Shown: positions 39,093 to 55,910, counted from the first letter of the stretch. The stretch: DNA of 64,000 nt from an uncultured Candidatus Saccharibacteria bacterium (GCA_964612745.1 CAZTCH010000001.1:77387-141386), one strand, 5' to 3'. Notes: generated by a model not told the origin, from the letters alone. Translations and numbers: made by a program.

Positions 39093-39378
39093 GGTAACTA
39101 AGTTACAAATACGTAATTCGTAATGCGCAATGTGAAATCAGAATTCAGAACTCCGAAACAAACTCCAATCCACAATCCGCCAAACGGCGGAGGCGGACGA
39201 AATCTAAGTTTTAAACATTGGGATTTATTCTTGATGGGCTCTGTGTATAGTTTACAGTTTTGAGTTGAAGTTTTGCGTTTTGACTTTTGAATTTTGAGTT
39301 ACATTTGTATTTATTTGGGCTTTGTCCGCCAGCTGGCGGATTGGAATTTATTTGAATTTGTTGTTTGTTATTTGGTAT
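39093..39378. repeat. Dispersed intergenic element containing a 52-bp conserved motif (39250-39301) flanked by an internal inverted repeat (ccaatccgcc...ggcggattgg)
   Basis: gtttacagttttgagttgaagttttgcgttttgacttttgaattttgagtta is identical to 44719-44770. Heptamer ttttgNN periodicity. Confidence 0.55.
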
Positions 39379-41190
39379 TTACTGTATTTCATACACTGCC
39401 AACACTGCTTGACCGAATTTGTTGCGCATTTCTGTTTGCAACTTGGCGTTGGGGTAAAATGCTTTAAACTTTTTTACATCGAACATGCTGGATTGGGTGA
39501 AGACCACTTGCATACCAGGGAGTAAGCCGTGAGGGTAGGTTGATTTGCCGCGGATAATGTCGGAAGGGGCAAGCCACGCATCTTCTGGGTCCACTTGCAT
39601 GTACGGCATGTTTTTTGGATTATCGACGCAGTTTGGTACACGGAATGCTTCGGTGCGGTCACAGGCACGTGCGCCATCTACTGTGGTGAGGTAGTCAACG
39701 GTTTGCACAGAAAACTTGTCGAGTACTAAATATGTAGTGTTTCTATCTCCATGCTTTTTCAAGTAGTCACTCACGACTGTTAAGTCACTGCGAAAAGCAA
39801 AATAATTTTCTGGGCTATGTGCTGCACCAATAAAATAGTGGGCGTACGTTTGGATAGGTACCCCAATAAAGAAACACACTGCAAGTATTTGCAAAGAAAT
39901 TTGCACTGCTCGTTCCATGCGCGGGCTGCCATGGGGGTGTTTGGTTACTACGTGCCAGACAAACGACCCAACGGTGTGCAAGCCATATGCGGTGATTATG
40001 AACACTGCAGGAATAGTCCCAATAGCTCTGAGGCCGTGGGGGATTCCTTCTGCAGTCGTAATGACCGGTAAAAGGAAAGAAACGAACCAGCCTGCCAAAA
40101 CAAAGCTTGGGTAATGTCGTTTCTGTTGGATAGGGGAGAACATGTAGCGCAGTGCATTCCAAATCACCAGTAACAACCCAAACGCAAAGAATGGGGAAAC
40201 GAGAGGGGAGAGGAAGGCAAGCCCAGAAATATTGTGTCGCCAGTTTAGGTCGCCTTCGGTAAAGTAGCCAAGAAAACTAACTCGCGTTACTTCCAGTACC
40301 GTGCCAATCAAATCACCCTTGTTCAGTTCTGGGTTAAATACGCTTACTTGGCCGCTTCTACCAATAAAGGCATCTGGGTGTGTGTAAAAATAGTGCGCTA
40401 AAGGAGTTATACAAATCGCAAAAGCAATAATTGCCAGAGCGGTCGCTTTCCAGTATGGCGAAAGAGTGGCAACGAGTCCTCGTTCTTTTAAGTGCGCAAG
40501 GAGTGGCCAAATAATGTACAAAGCAAGCAGTGGGGCGAGTACCCGATAGGCAATGTATGTGTAAAACCCAAGTGCAAAGCTTGCACCGAGCGCAATAGCA
40601 TATGCATATTGTGTTTTGCGAGGTTGGTCGCTTTGGTATGTTTTGAGGAGGAAGAGTACAGTGGCGGTAACAAAGAGCGGAATCATGTTTGCACGAAACG
40701 CAGTGCGAGAAAGTACTACATGCCATGTAGAAGTTGCCATGATAAACGTGGCGAGCAGGGCTACTATATTTGCAGATCCAACAGTTTGCTGCACTTGCTC
40801 TACCAATGTTTGTCTGCCAATTTGTACGGTGCGTTCTGCGTGTGTGTCTTCTTCTCTTCCGACTAGTTTTCTAAACAGAGCCTTTGTGACATAAAAACAA
40901 AGTACTGTGGCGCCAATGCCAACGAGGGCGGAGACGACGTGGTGCGCAAATGGGCTTCTGCCGAATAGCTTTACAGAAGCGTACAAGAAGTAAAAGAATA
41001 AAGCTTCACGACCATTGCCTCGTTCGTAAAACGGCTGGAAGAAGCCTTGGTCCATCGAGTTTATGTCTAGTCCATTTGCTGCTTCGTCAGGGAATAAACC
41101 GCCCGGAAGACTGCCAATATGGTACAGTCGAAAGAATAGAGCAAGGGCAAACGTGAGGATTGTTATGGCGAGAAATATCTTTTTATTCAT
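39379..41190 (-). CDS. GT-C fold glycosyltransferase family 39 (ArnT/PMT-like)
   Basis: N-terminal TM then a DE motif (GLFPDEAANGLD). Polytopic, 603 aa. Confidence 0.7.
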   Translation of the reverse strand: MNKKIFLAITILTFALALFFRLYHIGSLPGGLFPDEAANGLDINSMDQGFFQPFYERGNGREALFFYFLYASVKLFGRSPFAHHVVSALVGIGATVLCFYVTKALFRKLVGREEDTHAERTVQIGRQTLVEQVQQTVGSANIVALLATFIMATSTWHVVLSRTAFRANMIPLFVTATVLFLLKTYQSDQPRKTQYAYAIALGASFALGFYTYIAYRVLAPLLALYIIWPLLAHLKERGLVATLSPYWKATALAIIAFAICITPLAHYFYTHPDAFIGRSGQVSVFNPELNKGDLIGTVLEVTRVSFLGYFTEGDLNWRHNISGLAFLSPLVSPFFAFGLLLVIWNALRYMFSPIQQKRHYPSFVLAGWFVSFLLPVITTAEGIPHGLRAIGTIPAVFIITAYGLHTVGSFVWHVVTKHPHGSPRMERAVQISLQILAVCFFIGVPIQTYAHYFIGAAHSPENYFAFRSDLTVVSDYLKKHGDRNTTYLVLDKFSVQTVDYLTTVDGARACDRTEAFRVPNCVDNPKNMPYMQVDPEDAWLAPSDIIRGKSTYPHGLLPGMQVVFTQSSMFDVKKFKAFYPNAKLQTEMRNKFGQAVLAVYEIQ

Positions 41191-41228
41191 TTGCTTTTTA
41201 GTTCAATTTTTTGTATAATTATTTTTAA

Positions 41229-41570
41229 GTGACACTCATGACTCAGCATAAATACTATTTCATTTTGTTGTTTCTACTTGCCGTTGTTATACATATCATA
41301 ACATGGCTCTTAATTGTGAGTTATGCACCAACCAGTGGGCAACTCGTTCCAATCCACTACAACGTTATTAGCGGGTACGACGAACTGGGTAGCAGAGCAG
41401 ATTTATTGCAAGTACCAGTGTTTGGGATGCTCGTTGTGGTGGTGAATGCGGTCATTGCGTGGCTGTTTCGTTCAACTGGCCGGTTTGTGGGATCGCTTGC
41501 AGTAGGAGTGGCTTTAGCAGTGTCTCTGGTGTTGTTGCTCAGTACCTTGTTGCTTGTGGTACAAGCTTAA
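41229..41570 (+). CDS. Small membrane protein, unknown function
   Basis: 113 aa, 3 TM helices. tgtataatt -10 at about 41200. Confidence 0.4.
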   Translation: MTLMTQHKYYFILLFLLAVVIHIITWLLIVSYAPTSGQLVPIHYNVISGYDELGSRADLLQVPVFGMLVVVVNAVIAWLFRSTGRFVGSLAVGVALAVSLVLLLSTLLLVVQA

Positions 41571-41591
41571 TTTTGAATATATCTATATTGT

Positions 41592-43259
41592 ATGTTTCGT
41601 AAACGCACGCTCACAGAACGTTTTTGGGAAGTACTCCCTGGTTTGCAGTTTTGGTCTGCTTTTTTAGGTGCCATTGCACTTGCAAAGTACCAACCTGTTT
41701 GGGCAGCGTTATTTATTATTTGTTTTGATTTATATTGGGTGCTCAAAGCCTGCAATGTTGGCTTGCACCTGCTTTCCAGTTACCGCAAGTTTCGTGTGCA
41801 TGTAACCATCGATTGGCTTTCGGAAGTACGTGCGATAACGACAGATGTAACGTCGTACATTGCGAAGCTAACACAACAAGCAGAGACGGATACTCGCGTG
41901 GTAGCGAGGCACTACTTTGCGCATGAAGTAGAAAGACTCCAAAAGCTTCTTGCTTCGGGTAAGACGATACGGTCGTACGAAGACATCGTGCATTTGGTGT
42001 TGTTTCCTTTTGTAGACGAGTCGGTAGAAGTGTTGTCTTCGACGTTGGACGCCATGCTCGCAGTGAACTACCCGAAAGAGAAGATCTTTATTATATTGGC
42101 GAGCGAAGGACGCATGGGCGAGCCTGCGCAAGAAACAGCCCGGATACTGAGAGAAAAATACGCCAAGCACTTTGGCAATTTCTTTGTCACCGTGCACCCC
42201 GATGGTTTGGAAGGGGAAATAAAAGGGAAAAGTGCCAATGCGAGCTGGGCTGTGCAAGCAGTTATGCCAGAGTTGGAGCGTTTAGGCATAGCTGTGCCTG
42301 ACTGTATGGTGTCGAACTTCGACAGTGACACGGTGGTGCACCCACAATATTTTGCGCGCGTGACCTACGAGTTTTTGACCGCAGAAAAGCCATATCGTTC
42401 CAGCTACCAACCAATCGCTATCTACAACAACAACATTTGGGACGCACCAGCATTTATTCGGGTGATTAGCGTATCCAACTCTTTTTGGCAGTTTACTGAA
42501 AGCAGCAGGCCAGACCGATTACGTACGTTTAGCTCTCATTCCATGACGCTGCAAGCACTGGTAGAGGTTGGTTTTTGGAAAAAAGATTTGGTGAACGAAG
42601 ACGGGTTTATTTTCTGGCAATGCTACTTGCACTACGAAGGGGATTACTCCGTCGTGCCTTTGTTTATCCCTATTAGCTTGGACACCTGTTTAGCAGAGAC
42701 AACGTGGCAAACGTTTAAGAACCAGTACTTACAAAAGCGTCGTTGGGCGTACAACGTAGAGTATTACCCACACTTAATTTGGCCACTCATACGTTCGAAA
42801 GCGCCATTTTGGGATAAGTTTTTGAAGCTCTACCAGTATGTGGAAGGGAACTTTAACTGGGCAACTGCTAGTGTTTTGATTTCTACGCTCGGACTTTTAC
42901 CACTGTTCTTGGGTGGTCCAGAGTTTTTGGATAGTGTTGTGGCGTACAACTTGCCACACGTGACCCAAACGTTATTGCGCGTGTCGTTGGTGTTTATTTC
43001 TGCGAGTGTGTACGTGAACTTGGTGTTATTACCTCCACGTCCAGCAAAATATGGCCGTTTCCGCAGCGTCATGATGTACTTGCAGTGGTTGCTAGTTCCT
43101 TTTGTGTCACTTATTTTTGGAAGTATTCCTGCGATTGAAGCGCATACACGGTTAATGCTGGGTAAGTATTTAGAGTTCTGGGTGACCCCGAAAGTTCGCA
43201 AAGGGGAGAGTACAGGGTTGACCATGAAAGAAATGCAAAAAGTTGGGGAGAATAAGTAG
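41592..43259 (+). CDS. Membrane-embedded processive family 2 glycosyltransferase (cellulose/chitin synthase-like)
   Basis: Ordered motifs D, DSD (NFDSDTV), ED (NEDGF), and QKRRW (QxxRW), with flanking TM helices. Confidence 0.65.
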   Translation: MFRKRTLTERFWEVLPGLQFWSAFLGAIALAKYQPVWAALFIICFDLYWVLKACNVGLHLLSSYRKFRVHVTIDWLSEVRAITTDVTSYIAKLTQQAETDTRVVARHYFAHEVERLQKLLASGKTIRSYEDIVHLVLFPFVDESVEVLSSTLDAMLAVNYPKEKIFIILASEGRMGEPAQETARILREKYAKHFGNFFVTVHPDGLEGEIKGKSANASWAVQAVMPELERLGIAVPDCMVSNFDSDTVVHPQYFARVTYEFLTAEKPYRSSYQPIAIYNNNIWDAPAFIRVISVSNSFWQFTESSRPDRLRTFSSHSMTLQALVEVGFWKKDLVNEDGFIFWQCYLHYEGDYSVVPLFIPISLDTCLAETTWQTFKNQYLQKRRWAYNVEYYPHLIWPLIRSKAPFWDKFLKLYQYVEGNFNWATASVLISTLGLLPLFLGGPEFLDSVVAYNLPHVTQTLLRVSLVFISASVYVNLVLLPPRPAKYGRFRSVMMYLQWLLVPFVSLIFGSIPAIEAHTRLMLGKYLEFWVTPKVRKGESTGLTMKEMQKVGENK

Positions 43260-43576
43260 GGGGTAAGAGAGAATAGAGAGTAGAGGTTAGAGAATAGTAA
43301 GACAGGAATGAGGAGTTAGGAATTAGGTTGTCGTTCGACCCTGAGCTCACGGCCTAAGGGTAGGGAGTAGTAAAATAAATTCCAAATCTCAAGCACCAAA
43401 TAACAATAAATTCCAAAATCCAAAGTAAAAACTAGTAAGTCAAAACTGTAAACTTTCAATACATTTCAGTTTTGAGTTTACAGTTGCAGTTTTGCGTTTT
43501 GACCTTTCAGTTCTCAGTTTTATGCTTTTATTTAGCATTTAGCATTTAGCACTTAGCACTTAGTACTCGTTCAACT
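43260..43576. repeat. Intergenic heptamer-repeat element (purine arm, 52-bp motif variant at 43467-43522, ttagcat/ttagcac tandem)
   Basis: Direct reading. Same architecture as 39093-39378 and 44633-44930. Confidence 0.55.
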
Positions 43577-44632
43577 ATGAACTACTTACTCTATTGCGGT
43601 ATTGCATGTGTGTTGGCACTGGTGATTACGCCTTTGGTGCGTAAGCTGGCTTTTCGCCTTGGGTGCGTCGATAGACCGCAGGGCGGCAGGCATATTCACA
43701 CGAAAGAAACTGCTTTACTGGGCGGTTTAGCTGTTATCTTCTCTATGGTGTTAGCGGGTGGACTCTATGTGCTTTCTGGTAGTTTTGATTTTTCTGTGGT
43801 TCCTACCAAATTTGTGGTTGGCATTGTCACCGGCGTGTTCCTGCTAGTGTTGGGTGGATTTTTTGATGATAAATATACGCTACCCGCTCGCTACTCGTTT
43901 GTGTTTCCAGCGCTTGCTGCGGCGGCGGTAGTAGCTTCGGGGGTAGGTGTGGGGATCACTATATTGACCAACCCATTTGGTGGCGTAGTCCACTTGGGTA
44001 CTCTGTGGTTGGGTGTGCCAATCTCCGCGGTCTTCGTGTGGTTGTGGATTGTAGGTATGACGTACACCACCAAGCTACTGGACGGCTTAGATGGTTTAGC
44101 TGCAGGAGTGTCGCTCATTGGTGGTTTGGTTATGTTTGCTCTGTCACTCACAGATAAAGTTAACCAACCAGTCACGGCAACCCTGGCAATAATTTTTGTG
44201 GGGGCACTTGCTGGCTACTTGTTTTACGCGTTTAATCCTGCCTCTATCTTTTTAGGTGAAATTGGCAGCACATTTCTTGGCTTCTTTCTCGCGGTGCTCG
44301 CGGTGTTAACGGGAGCAAAAATTGCTACTGCGGTACTTGTGATGGGGATTCCGATTTTTGATGTAGCTTGGGCAATTGTCCGCAGACTCTGGCGACGACA
44401 AAATCCATTTGTGGGGGATAGAGAGCATTTGCATTTTCTGCTACTCGATGCAGGGCTTTCACAGCGACAAGCGGTGTTGGTGTTTTACGCACTTGCAGGC
44501 TTGTTTGGCTTTGTAGCAGTGTTCCTACAAAGCATGGGTAAGCTGGTGGCGCTATTTTTACTTTTGGCAGTCATGGTGGGGATTGTAGGGGCTCTGGCGA
44601 GAGTGTATAGGAAGAAGACTAGTAACGAGTAA
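43577..44632 (+). CDS. Glycosyltransferase family 4 polyprenyl-phosphate sugar-1-phosphate transferase (WecA/MraY family)
   Basis: 351 aa, 10-11 TM helices. The N-terminal pattern and conserved cytoplasmic loops match the MraY/WecA superfamily. Confidence 0.7.
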   Translation: MNYLLYCGIACVLALVITPLVRKLAFRLGCVDRPQGGRHIHTKETALLGGLAVIFSMVLAGGLYVLSGSFDFSVVPTKFVVGIVTGVFLLVLGGFFDDKYTLPARYSFVFPALAAAAVVASGVGVGITILTNPFGGVVHLGTLWLGVPISAVFVWLWIVGMTYTTKLLDGLDGLAAGVSLIGGLVMFALSLTDKVNQPVTATLAIIFVGALAGYLFYAFNPASIFLGEIGSTFLGFFLAVLAVLTGAKIATAVLVMGIPIFDVAWAIVRRLWRRQNPFVGDREHLHFLLLDAGLSQRQAVLVFYALAGLFGFVAVFLQSMGKLVALFLLLAVMVGIVGALARVYRKKTSNE

Positions 44633-44930
44633 CTAGTTGCGAGTTGCGAGAAAGATTAAGGAAAAGAGAGTAGAGAGTAGAGAATAGAGAGTAGAACTCA
44701 AAACTGTATTGCATTGAAGTTTACAGTTTTGAGTTGAAGTTTTGCGTTTTGACTTTTGAATTTTGAGTTAAGCTTGTGTTTATTTGTGCTTTTGATATTG
44801 TAATTTATTTGATATTTCGTGCTTGTTATTTGGTGCTTCTTGCAACCTACCCTCTATTTCTTCTAACTCTTCTAACTCTTCTCCTTCTAAAACTCTCCTA
44901 AAACTGGGCATTTTGGCTTACCACCCCTAA
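44633..44930. repeat. Intergenic heptamer-repeat element with the 52-bp motif (44719-44770)
   Basis: Purine arm gagagtagagaatagag, the exact 52-bp motif, a T-rich middle, and a pyrimidine arm ctctatttcttctaactcttc. Confidence 0.55.
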
Positions 44931-44931
44931 T

Positions 44932-44960
44932 TTGACATAATTTATACCAAAAGGTATAAT
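44932..44960 (+). promoter_or_regulatory. Consensus sigma70-like promoter for rplU (TTGACA, 17 nt, TATAAT)
   Basis: -35 at 44932-44937, -10 at 44955-44960. Confidence 0.55.
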
Positions 44961-45028
44961 ATTTGGGCAATTTGTTGAGGTTTTTCTCATTTTTGTTTTA
45001 CGATAAATATTTTTAAATTCCTGCATTT

Positions 45029-45334
45029 ATGATCGCTGTATTCGAAACTGGTGGAAAGCAATACTTGGTTTCCAAAGGAACAAAAGTCCAGGTGGAAAAG
45101 CTCCCGGGCGTAAAAGGTGACAAACTTGTTTTTGACAAAGTATTGTTTACTGCTGAAGGTACTGATTACTCCGTTGGCAAGCCATACATTTCTGGCGCAA
45201 GCGTAGAAGCAGAGATCTCCAAGCAGGGCCGTGGCAAAAAGATCGAAGTGCTCAAGTACAAGGCAAAGTCCAAGTACCGCCGCAAGATTGGTCATCGCCA
45301 AGCATATACTGAAGTAGAAATCACCAAGATATAA
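45029..45334 (+). CDS. rplU: 50S ribosomal protein L21
   Basis: 101 aa. MIAVFETGGKQYLVSKGTKV is a conserved L21 N-terminus. No rpmA follows. Confidence 0.9.
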   Translation: MIAVFETGGKQYLVSKGTKVQVEKLPGVKGDKLVFDKVLFTAEGTDYSVGKPYISGASVEAEISKQGRGKKIEVLKYKAKSKYRRKIGHRQAYTEVEITKI

Positions 45335-45336
45335 AA

Positions 45337-45367
45337 AAACGACTCCCTCGAGGAGTCTTTTTTTATA
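45337..45367. terminator. Bidirectional rho-independent terminator
   Basis: aaaaaacgactcc-tcgagg-agtcttttttt. Confidence 0.6.
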
Positions 45368-45529
45368 GCTTCTTAGCTTTCAGCTTCTTAGCTTACAGCT
45401 TCTCAGGCGAGCTCCTAACTCCTATCTTACTATTCTCTAACCTCTACTCTCTACTCTCTCATTCGTCATTACCCCCATCGTTACCTGTATTCCTAAAAGC
45501 TAAGAAGCTAAAAAGCTAGCAGCTAGCTT

Positions 45530-46153
45530 TTAGTATTCTCTCCGTCCTTCCATCGCGCGGGAGAGCGTAATTTCGTCTGCGTATTCTAAATCTCCACCCA
45601 TAGGAAGTCCGCGAGCGATGCGGGTAATGCTCAGGTCAGGGAATTGCGTGCGCAGCTGTTTGGAAAGGTGGAGCGCAGTTGTTTCGCCTTCGAGTGTTGG
45701 ATTTGTAGCAATGATTATTTCTGTAATAGGGGTACCGCTTTCTGCTCTGCTCGTTTCTATGCGGTGGAGTAGAGAGCGGATGTTTAGCTTGTCTGGGCCA
45801 ATTCCTTCCATAGGGTTCAGAACACCACCCAAGACGTGGAATGCCCCTTTAAAGCTCCCTGGTTTGTCTATAGCAATGGCATCCATGGATTCTTCTACAA
45901 CACACACCAGTTGCTGGTCGCGACTGGTGTTGGCGCATGTAGCGCATGTAGTGCTATCTGCCATAATGTGGCACGTGGCACAGTACTGCACCCCATCTTT
46001 CAGTCTACGGACACTTTCGGAAAACATGTCTAGTTCAACAGCGTCACGCTTTAACAGGTAAAAGACGAGGCGTTGTGCAGACTTGGGGCCAACACCGGGG
46101 AGTTTTGCAAATTCATTTATTGCTCGTTCGAGCGATTGTGGTAGGGAAGTCAT
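45530..46153 (-). CDS. recR: Recombination protein RecR
   Basis: 207 aa. HhH LPGVGPKSAQRL, C4 zinc finger CATCHIMADSTTCATC, and a Toprim domain. Confidence 0.85.
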   Translation of the reverse strand: MTSLPQSLERAINEFAKLPGVGPKSAQRLVFYLLKRDAVELDMFSESVRRLKDGVQYCATCHIMADSTTCATCANTSRDQQLVCVVEESMDAIAIDKPGSFKGAFHVLGGVLNPMEGIGPDKLNIRSLLHRIETSRAESGTPITEIIIATNPTLEGETTALHLSKQLRTQFPDLSITRIARGLPMGGDLEYADEITLSRAMEGRREY

Positions 46154-46199
46154 AATAAGAGGGCTAAGTAAAAAATGCTGAGTGCGAAGTGCTTAGTGC

Positions 46200-46562
46200 T
46201 TAGTGAATGCCGGAGATTAGCTTGTTGAGCATTTTCTGGATTTCTATGGTTAGTGGTAGTGCCTTATCGTTTGGAACTGTTGGATACATCATTTGTATAA
46301 TAAGAAGCTGAGTTTCCACTTCCGCAGCAGAAGCATCTGCAATTTTTAGGAATTGCTTAAACTCAGCTCTGCCATTTCTTTTGAAACCCTCTGCAATGTT
46401 TGAGGGTATAGAGATTGCTGCCCTTGTGATTTGAGCACTGAGAATGTATGTTTCTGTGCGAGGGAGCATATTTGTGATCTTGTAGATTTCTCTTACAAGG
46501 ACCATACCTTTTTGCCAGACAACTAAGTCTTTAAAATTGGTAATAGGCATATTTGTAATCAC
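46200..46562 (-). CDS. Four-helix-bundle protein (TIGR02436 family, as often found in rRNA intervening sequences)
   Basis: 120 aa. Motif ISIPSNIAEGFKRNGRAEFKQFLKIADASAAEVETQLLI. Confidence 0.6.
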   Translation of the reverse strand: MITNMPITNFKDLVVWQKGMVLVREIYKITNMLPRTETYILSAQITRAAISIPSNIAEGFKRNGRAEFKQFLKIADASAAEVETQLLIIQMMYPTVPNDKALPLTIEIQKMLNKLISGIH

Positions 46563-46575
46563 TAAGCACTAAGAA

Positions 46576-48193: not shown

Positions 48194-48493
48194 ATGAGAC
48201 AAATGACAACTCGTGAGCACATCCTTTTTACTATTGTTCTTACGCTAGCTACTTACTTAATCTGCCTAGGGGTAGTCGATCTCGCTAAGCGGTATAACCT
48301 CAATATGTACGCGACTACACAAGGATGCCAGATCCAGTCACTAGTACCATTAGTATGCGCCGAGCATCCTGATGCTGCCTCTCACGGTTGCGCAAAAAAT
48401 GACGTCATTATATACCATATTTTGTGCAAAAATGGTCGAAAGGCTGTGTACAAAACTGCGAAAGATGGCTCCACTTGGAGCTGGAAAAAATAG
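48194..48493 (+). CDS. Small membrane-anchored or secreted Cys-containing protein, unknown function
   Basis: 99 aa: N-terminal TM then an extracytoplasmic domain with 6 Cys. Confidence 0.4.
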   Translation: MRQMTTREHILFTIVLTLATYLICLGVVDLAKRYNLNMYATTQGCQIQSLVPLVCAEHPDAASHGCAKNDVIIYHILCKNGRKAVYKTAKDGSTWSWKK

Positions 48494-48567
48494 CGCGGTA
48501 TTTGAACTGTGCTAACTAAAATCTCAACTCGCAAGCGTTTGCTTGCTTTTCCTTTGGAGGTCGGTTT

Positions 48568-48897
48568 ATGTCCACTGAGAGAGCTTTTATTGCATTCCTG
48601 GTCTGTTTTACGGTGGTTGCGTGTGGTTGCGTGATGGCGCTTTTATTTGTAACCCCGAGGACTGATCCTTCACCCGTGCCGGCTTACCGCTCAGAGCTGG
48701 AGCTAAAAATGAAGCCTAAAGGCTATGCTCCGGTTACTATTGTTATTCACCAATGCCCTGCTAGTCAGGACTGTGAGCCGGGTGACAGGTTGTGGATTGA
48801 AGGACGCACAGCTGGCGCAGACTGTTATTCTATTCACGCCTCAATCAAGACTGGACTGGAAGGCAGGGAGGTCAAAATTTTTCCTTGCAAAAAATGA
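48568..48897 (+). CDS. Small membrane-anchored or secreted Cys-rich protein, unknown function
   Basis: 109 aa: N-terminal TM, 7 Cys. RBS tggaggtcgg. Confidence 0.4.
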   Translation: MSTERAFIAFLVCFTVVACGCVMALLFVTPRTDPSPVPAYRSELELKMKPKGYAPVTIVIHQCPASQDCEPGDRLWIEGRTAGADCYSIHASIKTGLEGREVKIFPCKK

Positions 48898-48908
48898 TTG
48901 CAGCTCTC

Positions 48909-48955
48909 GAAAGCTTGTGTTTGTACATTGTACGGACACAAGCTTTCTTTTTAAT
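48909..48955 (+). terminator. Rho-independent terminator (11-bp stem with internal tgtacattgtaca palindrome, then T-run)
   Basis: gaaagcttgtg ... cacaagctttc then tttttaatt. Confidence 0.45.
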
Positions 48956-49146
48956 TACCAGCAAACCACGGACGCGTGCCCCTATAGAAACCCCGCAGTC
49001 AACCGTTGCATCAGCACGAGTCCGTGGATGAATGGAACCGCTCTTTTCAAAACCATCCCCGTTTTGAAAAGCACGTTACGTATTCCTGAATGCGCCATTA
49101 AAAGGATACCCCGGGTAAAGGCTTTGCGGTACCCGGGGAGGAGGTC

Positions 49147-49181
49147 ATTTTTGTAAAACAAAAGACGAGGGGTATCCTCGT
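49147..49181 (-). terminator. Rho-independent terminator of cysS
   Basis: gacgagg-ggtat-cctcgtc hairpin with a T-run on the minus strand. Confidence 0.5.
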
Positions 49182-49187
49182 CAGTTG

Positions 49188-50600
49188 TTATTGTGGTTTG
49201 ATAGTTTGGCCGTCTTTGGTGTCTAGTACACTGAAGCCGGCTTTTTCTATTTCTACTCGGAGTCTATCTGATTCCGCAAAGTCTTTGGTCGCTCGAGCGG
49301 TTTCGCGCTGCGAGGCGAGCTCGAGGATTCCTGCGGGGAGTGTTGCGAGTTCTCTTTTGTCTGCAAGTCCTAGTCCGAGTACTTCGTCGAACGAAAGGAG
49401 GAGTGCGCGTTTGCCTGCGGGTGGTAGCGTGTGGTCGCCAACGGCTTCCCAGAGTACAGCGAGTGCTTTGGAAGTATTTAAGTCTGCTTCGAGCGCTTCT
49501 CGGAATGCTGTTTCGTATGCGGTGAGATTACCTCCGTTGGTGTCTGCAGGTGCGTCACCAAGGTTATCTATGTGTGCGTACAACCGTTCGAGAGTTGTTT
49601 TGGCTGCGTGTAGGCTCTCTTCGGTAAAGTTAAACGCTTTGCGGAAATCTGTTTGCAAGCACAAGTATCGAAATGCCAGAGGGTAGAGCGGACCTTTATC
49701 TACGAGATCTTTCAGAGTTATGTAGTTGCCGTCCCGCTTCGCCATTTTTTTGCCATTGACCTGTAGATGTTCGCAGTGTGCCCAGAACTTGGCAAATGGT
49801 TTGCCGAACGGTTGGCTTTGTGCGATTTCGTTGGTGTGGTGGGGGAAGATTAAATCTACACCGCCGGTGTGGATATCTGTGGGCTTGCCGCCAAACGCCA
49901 CTTGGTTAATAACCGAGCATTCAATGTGCCACCCAGGGCGACCTTTGCCCAGTGTGGGGTGGTCCCAAAAAATTTGCCCGTCGTCCTCGGTGTGTGCTTT
50001 CCAGAGCGCAAAGTCGCTTAGGTTTTCTTTTTCGTAGTCGTCTACTTTTACGCGCGCTCCGACTTGCTTGCCTTCTAAAAACTTTGTGCCCACGAGTTCG
50101 CCGTAATCACCAAAATCGGCTTGGTATCTTTCTATACTAAAGAACACGCCGTCTTCTGTCGTGTAGGCGTATCCTTTTTCTATAAGCGCGAGGATAAACT
50201 CCTGAATCTGGGGGATAACATCGGCAACACGAATTATGGAAATTGCACTGTGGTCAATGTGAAGTGTAGACAGTTCCTTTAGGAAAATATCTAGGTAGGT
50301 GTTCGTGTAGGTGCGCAAATCATCCACGCTGCTGGCAGGTCCGAACTGTTTGATGCTGTCCCGAATAGTTTTGTCGTCTACATCGGTAATGTTCATAGCC
50401 CATGTCGTCGGGATGCCGACATACCGCAAACTGCGAACAAGAATATCGGTAAAGAGATAGGAACGAAAGTTGCCAATGTGAGCGTAGTTATACACGGTAG
50501 GACCACAGGAGTACAACCGAAGAGAATCTTTGGTCCCGTGGAGATGGTAATAGTCGTCCAGTGAGTCTGCGTGCTTGGTGAGCGTGTTATATAACTTCAT
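49188..50600 (-). CDS. cysS: Cysteine--tRNA ligase
   Basis: 470 aa. HIGH motif (YAHIGNFR), KMSKS-region equivalent, and conserved CysRS N-terminus. Confidence 0.9.
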   Translation of the reverse strand: MKLYNTLTKHADSLDDYYHLHGTKDSLRLYSCGPTVYNYAHIGNFRSYLFTDILVRSLRYVGIPTTWAMNITDVDDKTIRDSIKQFGPASSVDDLRTYTNTYLDIFLKELSTLHIDHSAISIIRVADVIPQIQEFILALIEKGYAYTTEDGVFFSIERYQADFGDYGELVGTKFLEGKQVGARVKVDDYEKENLSDFALWKAHTEDDGQIFWDHPTLGKGRPGWHIECSVINQVAFGGKPTDIHTGGVDLIFPHHTNEIAQSQPFGKPFAKFWAHCEHLQVNGKKMAKRDGNYITLKDLVDKGPLYPLAFRYLCLQTDFRKAFNFTEESLHAAKTTLERLYAHIDNLGDAPADTNGGNLTAYETAFREALEADLNTSKALAVLWEAVGDHTLPPAGKRALLLSFDEVLGLGLADKRELATLPAGILELASQRETARATKDFAESDRLRVEIEKAGFSVLDTKDGQTIKPQ

Positions 50601-50773
50601 ATTCAGATAGTACCATACCAGCCCACACCCGCCAACTCATTTATTGGATTGTATATGTCTATCAAATTCGAAAACTGTGCATGTTAGTAGTACATTGCAT
50701 TTGAAGAGTGGTTAGTTTTATGTGCCAATGTATTTTTGTCTTGTGTGATAGTCTTTCACCTTATTCGTTCTGT

Positions 50774-50807
50774 GGACCTAATTGTGACGGCCGTCACAAT
50801 TAGGTCC
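50774..50807. promoter_or_regulatory. 34-bp perfect palindrome (GGACCTAATTGTGACGGCCGTCACAATTAGGTCC), copy 1, overlapping the 3-prime end of the regulator gene
   Basis: Exact palindrome. Identical copy at 51377-51410. Confidence 0.6.
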
Positions 50808-51360
50808 TAACACGAAACAGCTTACGAAGGTCTGTGTCGTCTTCAAAGTTTGCGCGAGCAATACGGATATATCGTAACAGTCCTGATTTTTTAAGTAGCG
50901 CTAGCGCTTCTGGGCTAATTGGATGTGGGCTTACATAGATACTTGCTTGCAGGCACAAAAACCCTAAATCGCGTAATGAGTGGCGTAGCTGTGCTCGTAT
51001 GCTGCGCGCTTGTTCGGGTATATCGAACATAATCAGTCGCCAACTACCATCCCAAATTACCGGTTTAGGGTGCATGTGTACAGCAGCGATGAGTGCTTCT
51101 ATTTCTCCTTTGTTTGTGAGACGAAAGATTTTTCGCGCTTCTTTGTATTCAGTTTTAATCCAGCCTTGGTTATGCAGTCTGCGAAGTGTTCGGTCTAGTT
51201 TCTTTTCTCGAAAGTAGCGAGCAACCTCAGGAGCGGCTGCACTGCTCAGTGACTTGCGTCCTAGTGTATCTCCAAAAGCTGATTGGGCAGCTAAAAGGTA
51301 TAAAAGAACGTGAGTGGTCTTGGTTAACTGTTTGCTGTCTCGTACATAAAGTGTCTGCAT
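50800..51360 (-). CDS. PaaX-like winged-helix transcriptional regulator (Cas2-fold C-terminal domain)
   Basis: 186 aa. C-terminal motif WDGSWRLIMFDIPEQARSIRAQLRHSLRDLGFLCLQASIYVSP matches the PaaX_C pattern. N-terminal wHTH. Confidence 0.55.
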   Translation of the reverse strand: MQTLYVRDSKQLTKTTHVLLYLLAAQSAFGDTLGRKSLSSAAAPEVARYFREKKLDRTLRRLHNQGWIKTEYKEARKIFRLTNKGEIEALIAAVHMHPKPVIWDGSWRLIMFDIPEQARSIRAQLRHSLRDLGFLCLQASIYVSPHPISPEALALLKKSGLLRYIRIARANFEDDTDLRKLFRVRT

Positions 51361-51376
51361 ATAGTATTTTTCTTTT

Positions 51377-51410
51377 GGACCTAATTGTGACGGCCGTCAC
51401 AATTAGGTCC
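51377..51410. promoter_or_regulatory. 34-bp perfect palindrome, copy 2, 17 nt upstream of the regulator start codon
   Basis: Identical to 50774-50807. Candidate operator. Confidence 0.6.
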
Positions 51411-51571
51411 TGAGTTAATTGATAGGGCGCTGCAGAGTTTGGTGTGTGGTGAATTTGTTTTGCATCAAGACTGAAGTATCTAACGTATGCTCAGTTTGTA
51501 TCGGCCAATGTTTCTGAGCTTGTGCTGGTATGTAGTTCTTTTAGCTGCTGTTAAACATAAAAGCACTGGCC

Positions 51572-53266
51572 TTAGAGGGCGAGTGCTTTTAAGTGTTGTG
51601 TTTTTAGGTGAGAGAGTTGTTGGTGGGGGTGGGGGTGTTTCAGAATTTTGCTTAAGTGTAGTCCGTTAATGTAGTGAGGTAACAGCACATAGTCCACTTC
51701 GTATTGGTAGAGTGCCCGTGCGTCTGCCTCGTTTTGTGCAGTTACGATGAGCTTAGCGTGGAGGTGCTGGTTTTTGACTGACTCCGCTATTGCCCGGTTA
51801 TCGGATGCACCAGGGAGGGTAGACACAATCATACGCGCGGAACGCAGGTTGGCAAGCTCTTGGATGTACGGGTCAGATGCATCACCACAAATAGCAGGTA
51901 CGCCAAGGCGTGAGTAGTGTTCGGCAACTTCTGGGTTAAAGTCTATTATTACAAATTTCTGTCCATGCCGGAGGAATGACTCTGCTAACTCTTTTCCGGT
52001 ACGGTGCGCGCCAAGGAGGACGATGTGATTTTTGAGTGCTGTAATTTTCAGGTGGCGTTCTGCGCTGCCATCTTTAAAGTCAAACCAATCGAGCATACCA
52101 GCAAGTCGGTCGTAGATGGATTCACCACGCATAATAAAGAATGAGGAAATGGCAATGGTGACAATTGCAACCAGCGTCATGAGACTGCCAATGGTACTGT
52201 CGACGTGGCCAATCTTAATAGCAAGGGCGAGCAAGATTAAGCTAAACTCGGAGACTTGCCCCACAGTAAGCCCAGTCATGAACCCTGTGCGTGGTTTGTA
52301 CCCAAGGGTGGACATGATTACCAGCACGATGAGTGGCTTGCCAATCAGTACAAACAAAGACAGTAGTATTGCTGGAATAATTAAATTGCCCATGCCGGCA
52401 AACTGCAGCTGACTACCGAGTACCACAAAGAAAATCATAATAAAGAAGTCGCGCAAGCTGCGAATGCGCGCAGATACTTCGTGGTGTAAACTGCTGCGGG
52501 AGAGTGCGAGCCCAGCCAAGAATCCGCCAATCTCCAAAGAGAAACCCATGAAAGGGAGTTTTACAAACGACGCAAAACCAATTGCCCATGCAAGGGAGAA
52601 TATTAGGAGGAGTTCGTCTGACTTGCCAATAAATTTGAGCAGCCGAGGGAAGACGAATTTGCTTACCAGAGCGATAATAGCTACAAGTACCGTTGCTTTG
52701 CCTGCAGTAAACAGCAACGTGCCCCATAAAGGGAGTGCGTTTCCTGCCGTGTCGCTCCCACCTGCGCTCGACAGTGTCATGAGCATGACCAGTGCGACCA
52801 AATCTTGCACGAGAAATATTCCCAGTGCGAGTCTACCGTACAGACTTTGCAGTTCACGTTTTTCCGAAAGGAGCTTTACGACAATAATGGTAGAAGAGAA
52901 GCTCAAGCCTACTGCTACATAAATTGCAGCAATAGGCGGCAGTCCAAACCCGAGTGCGAGTACTAAACCCAGTGCGCCCGTTATAGTGACTTGTGCAGCT
53001 CCGGCAATAAGTGCTTTCCTGCCGATTTTTTTCAGTTCAGAAATATCTAACTCAAGTCCTACCATGAACAAAAGTAGTGTAATACCGATTTCCGAAAGAG
53101 AGTGTAAGATTTCGCCTTGGTTTATTTTCCACAATCCGAGTGGGCCAAGTAAAAGACCAGCGAAGATGTAGGCGAGTACCGTTGGCTGCTTAAACAAATT
53201 AACGAGCAACGCACAGCCGCCAGCAACAAGGAGGACAAGTGTGAGTTCTGCAAATAAATTTTCCAT
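51572..53266 (-). CDS. Monovalent cation:proton antiporter-2 (CPA2, KefB/KefC-like) with C-terminal RCK/TrkA-N domain
   Basis: 564 aa, 12-13 TM helices. Rossmann motif VLLGAHRTGKEL...VIIDFNPE. Confidence 0.8.
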   Translation of the reverse strand: MENLFAELTLVLLVAGGCALLVNLFKQPTVLAYIFAGLLLGPLGLWKINQGEILHSLSEIGITLLLFMVGLELDISELKKIGRKALIAGAAQVTITGALGLVLALGFGLPPIAAIYVAVGLSFSSTIIVVKLLSEKRELQSLYGRLALGIFLVQDLVALVMLMTLSSAGGSDTAGNALPLWGTLLFTAGKATVLVAIIALVSKFVFPRLLKFIGKSDELLLIFSLAWAIGFASFVKLPFMGFSLEIGGFLAGLALSRSSLHHEVSARIRSLRDFFIMIFFVVLGSQLQFAGMGNLIIPAILLSLFVLIGKPLIVLVIMSTLGYKPRTGFMTGLTVGQVSEFSLILLALAIKIGHVDSTIGSLMTLVAIVTIAISSFFIMRGESIYDRLAGMLDWFDFKDGSAERHLKITALKNHIVLLGAHRTGKELAESFLRHGQKFVIIDFNPEVAEHYSRLGVPAICGDASDPYIQELANLRSARMIVSTLPGASDNRAIAESVKNQHLHAKLIVTAQNEADARALYQYEVDYVLLPHYINGLHLSKILKHPHPHQQLSHLKTQHLKALAL

Positions 53267-53530
53267 TTTTTATTTCTGTAGTGAACTAGATATGTAAGTA
53301 TTGTATCAAGAAAGTTTACTTGGGGGAATGGAGAAGGCGATAGAGAATAGAGAGTAGAGAGTAGAGAATAGTAAGATAGAAATAAGGAGTTAGGAATTAG
53401 AAATTAGTAACGAGTAACCAGTAGCTAGTAACGAGACAGAAAAAATTGAAAATTAAAAATTAAAAATTATATTCTCTCTAACTCTTCTATTTCTTCTAGC
53501 TTCCTAATACCTAGAAAGCTGAAAAGCTAA
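53267..53530. repeat. Intergenic heptamer-repeat region (purine arm gagaatagagagtag, then aaattaaaaatt, then pyrimidine arm)
   Basis: Direct reading. Confidence 0.5.
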
Positions 53531-53545
53531 CAAGCTAGTAAAATT

Positions 53546-53574
53546 TGCTCAAAAGCCCTCCAAACTGGTATAAT
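53546..53574 (+). promoter_or_regulatory. Promoter with extended -10 (TTGCTC, 17 nt, TGGTATAAT) 6 nt upstream of the ATG, implying a leaderless transcript
   Basis: tggtataat at 53566-53574. ATG of MNTPDAIFFIG at 53581. Confidence 0.45.
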
Positions 53575-53580
53575 TTACAC

Positions 53581-54156
53581 ATGAATACACCTGATGCAAT
53601 ATTTTTTATAGGACGGTCTGGTGCTGGAAAAGGAACTCAAGCACGTGAACTTTCCGAGCGACTTGGGTTTTTTTATTGGGAGATGGGCGCAATTTTGCGT
53701 GCCGAAATTTCTCGTGGTACGCCTATTGGCAAGGAAATCCAAGCACTTGTGAACCAAGGGTTGTTTTTGGGTGACCACCACATGTTCAAAGTTATTGCGA
53801 GTCATATCGACGAAATCCCCGAAGGCAAAGGCATTATTTTCGACGGACTACCACGGCGCATGAGCCAAGCACCATATGTTATCGGCTTACTCCATGGTTT
53901 GGGTCGCAAAGATTTGGCAACGTTGTTTTTAGATGTTCCCCGAGAAGACTCAGTTGAACGTTTGCTCAAGCGAGCAACTGTCGAACACCGACCAGACGAC
54001 ACAGAAGAAGTAATCAACCGTAGACTCGACCAGTTCGAACAAGAAACGTTACCTGTGCTGGACTTCTTGCAAGAGATGACACGTTTTTATCGGATAGATG
54101 GCAGGCCAGCAATTCCAGAAGTGACTACCGCCATTAACACACTGCTCGAAATCTAA
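53581..54156 (+). CDS. Adenylate kinase family nucleoside monophosphate kinase (short LID type)
   Basis: P-loop GRSGAGKGTQA, NMP-binding and FDGLPRRMSQA motifs. Start chosen at the leaderless ATG rather than 53545. Confidence 0.7.
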   Translation: MNTPDAIFFIGRSGAGKGTQARELSERLGFFYWEMGAILRAEISRGTPIGKEIQALVNQGLFLGDHHMFKVIASHIDEIPEGKGIIFDGLPRRMSQAPYVIGLLHGLGRKDLATLFLDVPREDSVERLLKRATVEHRPDDTEEVINRRLDQFEQETLPVLDFLQEMTRFYRIDGRPAIPEVTTAINTLLEI

Positions 54157-54806
54157 TGCCAACAGCGCGTACCAAAGTAGCGAAGAAGACACCAGCGAAG
54201 GCGGAGCAGCCGCTCAATATTTTTGTGCTCGGTGACTTAGGTGCGGGTAAAGGGACGCAGTCGGTGCTACTGCAAAATCTGTTTCCGTTGTACGAAATAG
54301 ACATGGGGATAGAGCAAGAGCTGCAGCGACGTAAAGATCCAAAGCTCGATGCGCTGCTTAAGCGAACTGTGGATCAAGGTAAGCTGAATAACACTACCGT
54401 GTACCGACGCTTAGTGAAAAACGCAGTGTTGCGGGCACCGAAGAGTAAAGGTATTTTGTTTGCTGGGCATCCGAAAATGCCAGACGAAGTGCGCTATGTA
54501 AATCGCTTTTTGCGCACTCTGGGTAGGACTCGGGCGATCGCTGTGTACATTACGATTCCATGGAAAGAAACAGTGCGCAGAAATTCGCAACGCAAAGGTT
54601 ACTTCGGAAACAAGAAGCGGCCAGACGATTCGCTTGCTGCAATCGCAGTTCGCAGGAAAAATGCCCAAGCTAGTTTGCGCCAGTCGCGCAGTGTGTACAA
54701 AGAGTTGTACCCGTACTTGCAGATTAGTGGCATGGGGACTGTGCGCGGTGTGCACGGCAGAGTCATGCAGGCAATACAAAAGCTGACTAAAAAGCTGGAC
54801 TCGTAA
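54156..54806 (+). CDS. Second, divergent adenylate kinase-like NMP kinase paralog
   Basis: P-loop LGDLGAGKGTQS. Divergent NMP-binding region (FAGHPKMPDEV). Start overlaps the stop of the previous gene. Confidence 0.55.
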   Translation: MPTARTKVAKKTPAKAEQPLNIFVLGDLGAGKGTQSVLLQNLFPLYEIDMGIEQELQRRKDPKLDALLKRTVDQGKLNNTTVYRRLVKNAVLRAPKSKGILFAGHPKMPDEVRYVNRFLRTLGRTRAIAVYITIPWKETVRRNSQRKGYFGNKKRPDDSLAAIAVRRKNAQASLRQSRSVYKELYPYLQISGMGTVRGVHGRVMQAIQKLTKKLDS

Positions 54807-54820
54807 TTGGAATATATTTT

Positions 54821-55582
54821 ATGAAACATGGTCAGATTAAAACCGCATCAGAGATAGAAATCATTGCCGAAGGAGGCGCGCTCCTGCGGGATATTTTGCA
54901 TAAGACAGCAGCACGAGTCGCTCCGGGGGTTTCTACTTTGGAGTTGAGCGATTTTGCAGATGCAGCTATTCGAGCGATTGGTGGTAGGCCAAGCTTTGTT
55001 GGGTATGGTGAAAAGAATAATCCATTTCCAGCTGCATTGTGTACGTCACCAAATGACGTAGTCGTGCATGGCATTCCCAGTGCGAAAGTAATTTTGCAAG
55101 CAGGGGATATTATTGGGCTCGACATTGGCATGGAGTACAAAGGTTTGTTTACCGACACCGCAATTACCGTGCCGGTTGGCACGATTACCCCTGCAGTGCA
55201 GAAGTTGGTGGAAGCAACCAAGCGCAGTATGGAGCTGGGCATTGCGCAAGCGGTGGCTGGTAACCGCATAGGCGATATTGGTTTTGCGGTACAACAATAT
55301 GCTGAGAAAAATGGTTTTTCTGTGGTGCGCGATTTAGTTGGGCATGGGGTTGGTTACGATGTGCACGAAGATCCCCAAGTACCAAACTATGGAAAAAAAG
55401 GAAGTGGTGCCAAGTTGGTAGAAGGCATGGTCATAGCTATAGAACCAATGTTGTGCACTGGTGGGTACCATGTGTATTTTGAAGATGACGACTGGACTAT
55501 TCGTACCGAAGACGGTGGGCTTTCTGCTCATTTTGAGCACACTGTGGCGGTAACGAAAAAGGGACCGAGGATTTTAACCTAA
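54821..55582 (+). CDS. map: Methionine aminopeptidase type I
   Basis: 253 aa. Metal-binding residues in VVVHGIPS, DIGMEYKG, and HGVGYDVHEDP. Confidence 0.85.
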   Translation: MKHGQIKTASEIEIIAEGGALLRDILHKTAARVAPGVSTLELSDFADAAIRAIGGRPSFVGYGEKNNPFPAALCTSPNDVVVHGIPSAKVILQAGDIIGLDIGMEYKGLFTDTAITVPVGTITPAVQKLVEATKRSMELGIAQAVAGNRIGDIGFAVQQYAEKNGFSVVRDLVGHGVGYDVHEDPQVPNYGKKGSGAKLVEGMVIAIEPMLCTGGYHVYFEDDDWTIRTEDGGLSAHFEHTVAVTKKGPRILT

Positions 55583-55663
55583 GCACAAAATTCGAAAATA
55601 GATAATTTAAAACTCAAAAGTCAAAACTTCAGGTCAAAACTTTAAACTCTTGAAAAGGGTTAC

Positions 55664-55700
55664 CCTTGTGCAGCACAAAGGTAACCCTTTTGCGTTCTCT
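55664..55700 (+). terminator. Rho-independent terminator after map (gggttaccc hairpin family)
   Basis: aaaagggttacccttgtgcagcacaaaggtaaccctttt. Confidence 0.55.
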
Positions 55701-55901
55701 ACGTTCCATCTGTCAGTGCATGTTAGATGGTGCCCTCAAGTCCTAACTGAAAGTTTCTAACTTTTGAGTTGCAGTTTTGCGTTTTGACTTTTGATTTTTG
55801 GGTTAAAGGTTTAAGTCTTTATCTATCTTTTCAAGCCCATATTTCTTTGTTTTTCCGCTATAATTGGACATATTTTCCATATTGCCGTGTTCCTGAATGT
55901 G

Positions 55902-55910
55902 TGGTATAAT
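55902..55910 (+). promoter_or_regulatory. Extended -10 element TGGTATAAT, with about 190-nt structured 5-prime UTR before the RRM protein gene
   Basis: gtggtataatttaca. The same 14-mer type is seen at 11099 and 53566. Confidence 0.4.

Follow-up and report, generated by a model that had tools for sequence, protein, structure and literature searches.

Genomes of Saccharibacteria and of other bacteria of the candidate phyla radiation (CPR) are very small and gene-dense, so that one would not expect them to contain intergenic spacers of 300-650 nt that consist of 7-nt units in ordered succession. Spacers of this kind are found in a 64,000-nt stretch of DNA from an uncultured Candidatus Saccharibacteria bacterium (GCA_964612745.1, CAZTCH010000001.1:77387-141386), which was analysed at its full length and is called the window in the following. 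An original prediction, made from the sequence alone, had pointed to a 52-bp motif that recurs in four intergenic regions of this stretch, and had proposed that it could be a small non-coding RNA (ncRNA) gene, a mobile miniature element or a conserved module with a regulatory or origin-like role. What, then, is this motif? We read it as the 3′ G/T-rich arm (TTTTGNN units) of a heptad-phased inverted repeat and not as a stand-alone element. We put at about one half the probability that this arm belongs to an 'empty' member, lacking an open reading frame (ORF), of a class of heptad-phased stem cassettes that resemble the intervening sequences (IVS) of 23S rRNA.

We numbered the copies by position (copy 1 at 39 kb, copy 2 at 43.4 kb, copy 3 at 44.7 kb and copy 4 at 55 kb). 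The 52-mer is identical at 39250-39301 (copy 1) and 44719-44770 (copy 3), on the + strand in both cases, a match that was not obtained in any of 100 shuffles. Copies 1 and 3 share 93% identity over 75 nt (39249-39323 versus 44718-44792) and, if one indel is allowed, remain alignable over ∼120-135 nt, the homologous modules spanning ∼39249-39381 and ∼44718-44838. The two close variants that had been claimed are real: copy 4 (G/T arm 55759-55805, + strand) is 93% identical over 44 nt (55762-55805) and copy 2 (G/T arm 43468-43522, + strand) is 85% identical over 40 nt (43468-43507). A 21-nt core, which reads GTTGCAGTTTTGCGTTTTGAC in copy 2, is common to both variants (GTTGMAGTTTTGCGTTTTGAC). All four copies are intergenic, as originally stated; copy 1, whose neighbouring genes are both on the minus strand, is antisense.

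By itself the motif forms a tandem array of TTTTGNN units with period 7, a feature absent from the original prediction. Tandem Repeats Finder (TRF) detected period 7 in copy 1 (39256-39300), copy 3 (44725-44769) and copy 4 (55762-55804), with 6.3-6.6 units and only 67-71% matches; the heptad units are unlike one another, stand in a fixed order and include one unit of 6 nt. A search for three successive TTTTGNN units gave 10 matches, compared with 0.85 expected. The same period runs through the spacers at large. In intergenic DNA the identity at lag 7 is 0.358 versus 0.28-0.30 at adjacent lags, with secondary peaks at lags 14 and 21; no comparable lag-7 peak was found in coding DNA. More than 30 heptad arrays with many unit types (GAGARTA, CGAATTA, TTAGCAC, AGTAACG and AGCTTCT among them) are present, all of them between genes, which are housekeeping genes: murD, ftsW, murJ, lepA, the atp operon, PMT-type, GT2 and GT4 glycosyltransferases, rplU, recR, dnaB, cysS, adk, map and a gene for an RRM protein. 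A BLAST comparison of the window with itself resolved dispersed modules of the GT type (the motif, four copies), the AG type (about six copies, on both strands), the AACGAGT type (at least two copies) and others. The 52-mer is one of at least five such modules, dispersed and heptad-phased, of which the enlarged spacers of this Saccharibacteria chromosome are composed.

The ends of upstream genes often lie in the first heptad, as in atpC, GT4 and dnaB and, as read from the sequence, in GT2. In 31 of 32 arrays the unit has a stop codon on one strand or both, compared with 76% expected (P = 0.002, for arrays that are not independent of one another), and because the period is 7 nt these stops fall in all three reading frames. 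Heptad arrays make up nearly all of the 658-nt spacer after atpC (22478-23135), among them 2.3 copies of a 93-nt unit at 100% identity (22593-22810). An AG array is paired here with a CT array over ∼45 bp, and downstream a consensus promoter can be read from the sequence at ∼22975-23003.

Three of the four G/T arms adjoin a complementary A/C arm on their left. In copy 3 the A/C arm at 44695-44708 pairs with 44722-44735 over 14 nt at 100% complementarity; in copy 2 the arm at 43441-43454 pairs with 43475-43494 over 11 nt at 91-100%, in two registers that lie 7 nt apart; and in copy 4 the arm at 55604-55642 pairs with 55759-55797 over 39 nt at 77% (95% over the inner 19 nt) around a 116-nt loop. 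A/C and G/T arms together make up a quasi-palindrome of ∼90-130 nt, the stems of which are almost wholly composed of A-U pairs with hardly any G-C pairs. The claim that the motif always has the same orientation therefore holds only for the G/T arm, the better conserved one, which lies on one strand in 4/4 copies (chance 1/8; not significant at n = 4); in three copies the opposite strand carries the heptad family of the motif right next to it. The hairpin centres of copies 2 and 3 are even mutually inverse (43440-43478 versus 44695-44732 on the minus strand, 90%), and to the left of copy 2 the alignment showed an inverted T/G-rich module tail (43370-43450, minus strand; ggaatttatt...ttatttggtgctt).

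Further layers are wrapped around these hairpins. The spacer between GT4 and rplU is laid out as AG array, A/C arm, loop, G/T arm (the motif), T/G-rich tail and CT array, which gives a nested quasi-palindrome; its outer 5′ layer is an AG heptad array of the GAGAGTA type (44660-44696, + strand) that pairs with the CT array in the outer 3′ layer (44846-44891, + strand). The motif had been placed in every case at a junction of purine and pyrimidine repeat arms. This is correct for copy 3; copy 2 has an AG array on its left only, and copies 1 and 4 have neither. Other copies of the AG module are located at 43267-43326 and 53342-53400 on the + strand and at 45412-45460, 57104-57134 and 22904-22945 on the minus strand. 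The inverted repeat reported around copy 1 exists (39173-39191 and 39325-39343, 19 nt, 84% complementary, plus three nested pairs), its left half at 39156-39201 pairing with the right half at 39321-39369. However, it does not amount to the proposed structure resembling a miniature inverted-repeat transposable element (MITE), as the 'terminal inverted repeat' is one of the nested palindrome layers that are typical of most spacers here. Each arm of this outer repeat carries a CCGCC-N4-GGCGG mini-hairpin (39176-39190 and 39326-39339), and the right-hand one appears in the module alignment as an insertion of ∼12 nt relative to the other copies.

We compared predicted folds with those of shuffled sequences, to which the z-scores for folds refer; those for duplexes of two arms refer to shuffled left arms. 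RNA folding gave z = −2.96 for 44633-44900, −2.98 for 39093-39378 (minus strand) and −6.39 for 55583-55830, and elsewhere −6.56 for 22460-22960 and −2.74 for 45335-45535 (minus strand). A known ncRNA found no backing and was discarded: Rfam 15 gave no match to the motif at the gathering threshold in the window or at E ≤ 1 in 39000-57200, the only matches being two tRNAs and one chance snoRNA.

We compared the window with loci and contigs from other genomes (designated L001-L024). Syntenic relatives share the gene order PMT-PMT-x-GT2-GT4-rplU-recR-dnaB...cysS-Na/H-adk-adk-map-RRM, with GT4 68-72% identical to that of the window. The spacers are much shorter there. The PMT/PMT spacer measures 286 nt in the window, 116 nt in L013 and 25 nt in L017, with an extra gene in L015; the GT2/GT4 spacer 317 nt versus 35 nt (L013), 62 nt (L015) and 76 nt (L017); and the GT4/rplU spacer 396 nt versus 141 nt (L013), 67 nt (L015) and 90 nt (L017). 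The counterparts in L018 measure 137-176 nt, and the range over all syntenic relatives is 12-176 nt. No array of three TTTTGNN units was found in the syntenic relatives L013-L020. The 12/12 consensus sigma-70 promoter of rplU (TTGACA-N17-TATAAT, 44932-44960, + strand) lies outside the heptad block and is kept in L013, right past the end of what is a block of ∼270 nt in the window. Likewise, for a gene whose protein is 96% identical between the window and L009, upstream homology ends at the promoter, and a motif block is present in L009 and absent from the window. Taken together, the array-free relatives with their short spacers, the promoter kept beyond the block and the difference between the window and L009 identify the heptad blocks as lineage-specific, fast-turning-over insertions or expansions and not as conserved regulatory DNA. 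The map/RRM spacer of L015 holds a palindrome of another sequence in the same place, again with the A/C arm on the left and the G/T arm on the right. The glycine-rich RRM_1 gene of the window (56103-56501), which has a 520-nt upstream spacer (55583-56102), is also present in L015. One protein of the window is 95.9% identical to a protein on a contig of the metagenome-assembled genome (MAG) 'uncultured Candidatus Saccharibacteria bacterium SRP278252_co1_100'.

Absent from near relatives at the same sites, the motif recurs in distant ones. A search for the exact 21-nt core yielded 9 loci among genomes of 185,579 species (one genome per species) and 2 records among 241 million metagenome records; there were no matches in viral contigs and none in phage and plasmid records, so that nothing points to an origin in phages or plasmids, although some of the query may have been hidden by the low-complexity filter of BLAST. 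The genome matches belong to a Parcubacteria MAG (five copies at four loci), a Saccharibacteria relative (three copies), an unclassified 'bacterium' MAG and a MAG of 36% G+C labelled Gammaproteobacteria, and the metagenome matches to a contig of 26% G+C and a ribosomal-operon contig. All loci with the core are CPR-type MAGs or contigs, with a local G+C content of 26-48%. Conservation extends past the 21 nt used for selection, ∼14 nt upstream and 16 nt downstream, to a consensus of ∼50 nt, AGTTTTAAGTTTTGA-GTTGMAGTTTTGCGTTTTGAC-TTTTGAGTTTTGAGTTA, in which the units are ordered GTTTTGA-GTTGMA-GTTTTGC-GTTTTGA-CTTTTGA with one irregular 6-nt unit. Outside Saccharibacteria the elements are compact palindromes of 87-110 nt in short spacers, with gaps of 5-65 nt to the neighbouring ORFs, divergent gene pairs included, and the irregular unit GTTGMA is matched by TACAAC in the A/C arm. 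Every paired element has the A/C arm first and the G/T arm second. At two Parcubacteria loci (L001 and L002) the element takes up nearly all of the DNA between two divergent genes, and in L012 its place is between rplP and rpmC, inside a ribosomal-protein operon. Since independent slippage would not yield a shared order of unlike units across such different compositions, this order indicates either common descent with horizontal spread or a strong sequence constraint. A further small motif, TAGATGGTGCCC(ATC), forms inverted pairs beside the G/T module in the Saccharibacteria relative (L005, 1972-1986 and 2049-2063; L009, ∼1308-1404) and occurs as degenerate single copies in the window (55722-55738 and 63535-63551); it may be another small hairpin element.

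Two of the core-bearing loci link the motif to a gene family. In L003 and L011 the core follows directly after the stop codon of a PF05635-type four-helix-bundle gene, and the A/C arm lies at the 5′ end of this gene; the arms are 350-470 nt apart and form duplexes of −37.4 and −43.0 kcal/mol (z = −5.2 and −7.0). The window contains a PF05635 gene (23S_rRNA_IVP family, four-helix bundle; IVP gene in the following) between dnaB and recR (46200-46550, minus strand, E = 4.8e-32), whereas in L013 dnaB and recR are merely 11 nt apart. The 5′ arm of this cassette is an array of GTGCTTA units (46555-46585, minus strand) that contains the dnaB stop codon in its first unit, and the 3′ arm is an array of TAAGCAC units (46180-46209, minus strand) that contains the IVP stop codon; both arms together give a stem of ∼27 bp (z = −3.43). 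A third array upstream of dnaB (47992-48024) can pair with the middle array (46555-46585), so that two alternative stems are possible.

Orthologous dnaB-IVP-recR cassettes occur in relatives. L018 and L019 share the GTGCTTA/TAAGCAC unit family of the window. In L017 the units are GGGCTAA and TTAGCCC, that is, both arms have changed together at two positions per unit, and L020 has GGGCTAA units at the 5′ end and only a weaker complementary 3′ arm. A second cassette with like arrays, its IVP gene next to recR, is present in L017, L018 and L020, and L021 carries an IVP cassette between gap and rpiB, with a 5′ arm of TAGTTTT units. In L021 (644-1336, minus strand), 1.1 kb from this cassette, a gene with a weak Y1_Tnp match lies inside an inverted repeat of ∼30 bp (duplex −46.4 kcal/mol). 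The IVP cassette of a Sungbacteria MAG is built of CCACTAG and CTAGTGG units (−44 kcal/mol); in a Proteobacteria MAG the IVP gene carries an array at its 5′ end alone, and for L024 the match is only partial. Heptad arrays were found at the ends of all 14 IVP genes examined, complementary on both sides in at least 11 of them. The median energy of the duplex formed by the flanks was −23.2 kcal/mol for nine IVP genes versus −11.9 kcal/mol for 97 other genes of the same loci (Mann-Whitney P = 2.6e-4). These comparisons show that heptad-array stems of the motif's class bracket PF05635 genes in Saccharibacteria and other CPR genomes. Empty stems of this kind occur as well: the recR/rplU spacer of the window holds an ORF-less stem cassette of AGCTTCT and AGAAGCT arrays around a loop of ∼95 nt (45363-45529, minus strand; fold z = −2.74), exactly where L017, L018 and L020 have a PF05635 gene. 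PF05635 proteins are similar to the accessory protein of diversity-generating retroelements, Avd (PMC10053308), a likeness that hints at nucleic-acid binding.

The IVS of 23S rRNA offer a precedent for such an architecture. RNase III excises those that carry an S23p/PF05635 ORF, and selfish elements is how they have been described (PMC4990558). As in Coxiella burnetii and Leptospira, we find an insert between complementary arms with a long stem and often a PF05635 ORF, a sporadic distribution and the appearance of horizontal acquisition; long stems are present in three of the four motif copies and in the IVP cassette at 46180-46585. In contrast to the rRNA elements, the cassettes described here lie between protein-coding genes and not in helix 9, 25 or 45, and Rfam detected no rRNA in the window. 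Their stems consist of tandem 7-nt units, and most copies, including all four of the motif, are ORF-less. Such stems bracket PF05635 genes, in two distant genomes with the motif itself, and for this reason the four copies in the window look like ORF-less IVS-like members.

On this reading the element is probably selfish or neutral, and not a gene for ncRNA, a promoter or a terminator; it probably turns over fast and loops out as double-stranded RNA, and we infer that it is both processed and mobile. In the mechanism that we propose, arrays would lengthen and shorten via 7-nt replication slippage, either selection for pairing or the use of one arm as template for the other would keep the arms complementary, and entire modules would be copied from spacer to spacer and occasionally from genome to genome. 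In the transcript of either strand the arms would pair, and the enclosed segment would loop out on a long double-stranded stem. RNase III would remove this stem, by analogy with rRNA IVS, so that little harm would come to the flanking genes. With stops every 7 nt in all three frames, translation of the upstream gene would still end at any copy number.

Several observations weigh against this reading of the motif as an arm of an empty IVS-like cassette. Its main weaknesses are that the loci elsewhere were picked by the exact 21-nt core and that they are few. Copy 1 has no adjacent A/C partner arm. A tblastn search with 124 IVP proteins (E ≤ 1) returned only the intact gene and noise, with no IVP remnant in the four motif copies, and an IVP gene is enclosed in only 2 of 13 core-bearing elements outside the window. 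The window's own IVP cassette belongs to another heptad family than the motif, which places the link at the level of stem class and not of demonstrated derivation. The folding data are mixed: copy 2 (43260-43576) reached only z = −1.95 and copies 1-3 altogether only −2 to −3, the heptad spacer at 53320-53545 folds no better than shuffles (z = −0.38), and low-complexity A/C-rich and G/U-rich arms pair fairly well even when the left arm is shuffled (z of 0 to −7). RNAalifold on 13 elements predicted 14 pairs without any compensatory change, an uninformative outcome since the loci had been chosen for an invariant core. No RNase III was found among the window proteins scanned. The nearly filled divergent spacers of Parcubacteria, finally, hint that the element must tolerate, and perhaps supply, promoter function.

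Among the other explanations, the one that survives best is a plain heptanucleotide microsatellite of the long simple sequence repeat (LSSR) or short tandemly repeated repetitive sequence (STRR) type. The arrays would then arise by local slippage and have neither function nor mobility, and copies would resemble each other owing to a small vocabulary of T-rich heptads together with local gene conversion. Period-7 arrays of many unlike units do fill the spacers, relatives have unlike units at the same site, and the blocks are not kept in syntenic relatives. The STRR of cyanobacteria are heptanucleotide tandem repeats. The TAACTGA repeats of Beggiatoaceae, Cyanobacteria and Bacteroidetes are intergenic 7-nt arrays with stop codons in their units and a patchy distribution, and they frequently reach into the end of the ORF upstream or lie shortly ahead of start codons (PMC4679880). 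Among the long simple sequence repeats of prokaryotes, heptanucleotides are the commonest, and slippage has been proposed as their cause (Mrazek 2007, as quoted in PMC4679880). Our arrays share with STRR, LSSR and TAACTGA repeats the head-to-tail 7-nt units in non-coding DNA, beyond chance length. However, those have been described as direct repeats of a single unit with no systematic complementary array as partner, whereas we find unlike units in fixed order, pairs of complementary arrays and bracketed IVP genes. From independent slippage one would expect neither an identical 52-mer at two loci, nor an order of unlike units with an irregular 6-nt unit that is kept over ∼50 nt across loci of 26-48% G+C, nor the systematic complementary arm and the co-variation of arms between orthologous cassettes. 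We regard the microsatellite explanation as unlikely.

Less probable still is a cis-regulatory site, with the G/T arm serving as upstream promoter element, as donor of a −35 box or as a site for an RNA- or DNA-binding protein in a 5′ leader. Outside Saccharibacteria, as read from the sequence, the core ends ∼17-36 nt before a start codon, the genes downstream look like gyrA, rpmC, rnhB and uvrD types, and the L001 and L002 elements take up nearly all of their divergent spacers. In the window TTGAC occurs within the units, copy 2 offers TTGACC-N16-TATGCT (a 9/12 match), and copy 4 is followed by the RRM gene, whose product is an RNA-binding protein. There are precedents in the TAACTGA repeats upstream of Beggiatoaceae starts (PMC4679880) and in the TTTTGAT heptads of Vibrio cholerae ctxAB, which are a single-locus site for promoter regulators (10.1101/2021.05.14.444153). 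The latter have a unit nearly identical to ours (TTTTGAT versus TTTTGAC/A/G), are arranged in tandem and lie upstream of genes, but a complementary arm is lacking and the repeats are not dispersed. The region contains 27 promoter-like sites versus 24.3 expected from shuffles. Strong consensus promoters are found downstream of and outside the blocks and are kept in relatives without a block; the same spacers function without the element in these relatives. The position of the arm does not fit either, as copy 1 is antisense, the arm stands at the 3′ end of a gene in L003 and L011 and the element lies inside a ribosomal-protein operon in L012. With sigma-70-like sites at chance level and consensus promoters outside the blocks, a promoter role finds no support and is unlikely in the window. 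The compact elements in divergent Parcubacteria spacers may have one, although inspection by eye revealed no convincing −10 boxes downstream of their TTGAC units.

Of the three identities first proposed, the mobile miniature element comes closest: the motif is multi-copy, missing from the syntenic spacers of relatives and shared with distant CPR genomes. In its classical form, that is, a MITE or an element of the repetitive extragenic palindromic (REP) type mobilised in trans by a DDE or Y1 transposase, such as a REP-associated tyrosine transposase (RAYT), encoded elsewhere in the genome, we consider this very improbable. Short, palindromic, intergenic copies that differ in presence between relatives and are scattered patchily over CPR genomes would suit it, as would the Y1_Tnp-like gene in its inverted repeat near the IVP cassette of L021, an unrelated locus. 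However, no target-site duplication was found at the junctions of copies 1 and 3, no transposase family was detected among ∼50 window proteins scanned, and the module boundaries are ragged, mosaic and different between copies. In the bacterial interspersed mosaic elements (BIMEs) of enterobacteria, a few types of module are combined into mosaics in either orientation. REP doublets forming hairpins (REPINs) are short imperfect palindromes of spacers, present many times per genome, and their evolution takes place within the genome (PMC3116915). Intergenic imperfect palindromes in mosaics and in both orientations are thus common to these families and to our elements, but REP units are G+C-rich palindromes of 20-40 nt without 7-nt periodicity and are tied to RAYT, and no RAYT was found in the window.

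An intrinsic bidirectional terminator or insulator, made of an A/T-rich hairpin and a subsequent U-rich tract, would suit the A-rich-then-T-rich polarity and copy 3, where a perfect 14-bp hairpin (44695-44735) and U-rich heptads come right after the GT4 gene, but this role is unlikely in the extreme, because canonical G+C hairpins are separate structures within the blocks or next to them (55653-55691, 45341-45357 and after atpC) and homologous elements lie inside operons (dnaB-IVP-recR and rplP/rpmC) as well as between divergent genes, quite apart from the near absence of G-C pairs in the stems and the failure of the terminator scan to report the motif hairpins. The terminator-like hairpin AAAAGGGTTACCC...GGGTAACCCTTTT at 55653-55691 (+ strand) sits in the loop of copy 4, which sets the heptad stem apart from the terminator. 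This hairpin occurs twice in the window (35261-35304 and 55653-55696), the second time inverted, with 84% identity.

A few further features of the window lie apart from the motif. A perfect 34-bp palindrome, GGACCTAATTGTGACGGCCGTCACAATTAGGTCC, is present at 50774-50807 and 51377-51410 on both sides of a minus-strand gene (50800-51360) with PaaX_M/Cas2-like and weak PadR-like domains, and could be the operator or terminator of an autoregulated gene. A 49-nt direct repeat of 96% identity (14052-14100 and 14171-14219) follows just downstream of tRNA-Thr (13972-14047). A gene of the Phage_holin_4_2 family (57153-57488) begins right behind a CT heptad array, and no promoter could be recognised in between.

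Returning to the reading as an empty IVS-like cassette, its components have precedents. We did not find a description of their combination, namely ordered complementary heptad stems that enclose PF05635 genes or are empty, lie in mRNA spacers of CPR bacteria and share one arm across lineages, and among the top-ranked open-access papers of our literature searches there was no report of heptamer repeats in CPR bacteria or Saccharibacteria. A bolder version of this reading is possible but doubtful: heptad arrays and PF05635 genes could make up an unrecognised class of selfish IVS-like cassettes in CPR mRNA operons and spacers, with ORF-less derivatives, and the ordered ∼50-nt G/T arm could be the recognition site for the cassette protein or for a processing or mobility enzyme.

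The motif is tied by our analysis to a testable architecture in which complementary heptad arrays enclose PF05635/Avd-like genes or did so in the past, with orthologous insertions whose arms co-vary and with one arm sequence common to very distant CPR lineages. For the study of CPR MAGs, the heptad blocks are hot spots of assembly errors and of strain-level length variation. If processing by RNase III or binding of a protein holds true, this would explain how essential operons, dnaB-recR and the ribosomal-protein genes among them, can tolerate such elements, and the widespread, function-less 'four helix bundle protein' genes and the heptanucleotide repeats would gain a common context. If the selfish cassette is a general phenomenon, it may also offer an origin for the unexplained heptanucleotide arrays of cyanobacteria, Bacteroidota and Beggiatoaceae.

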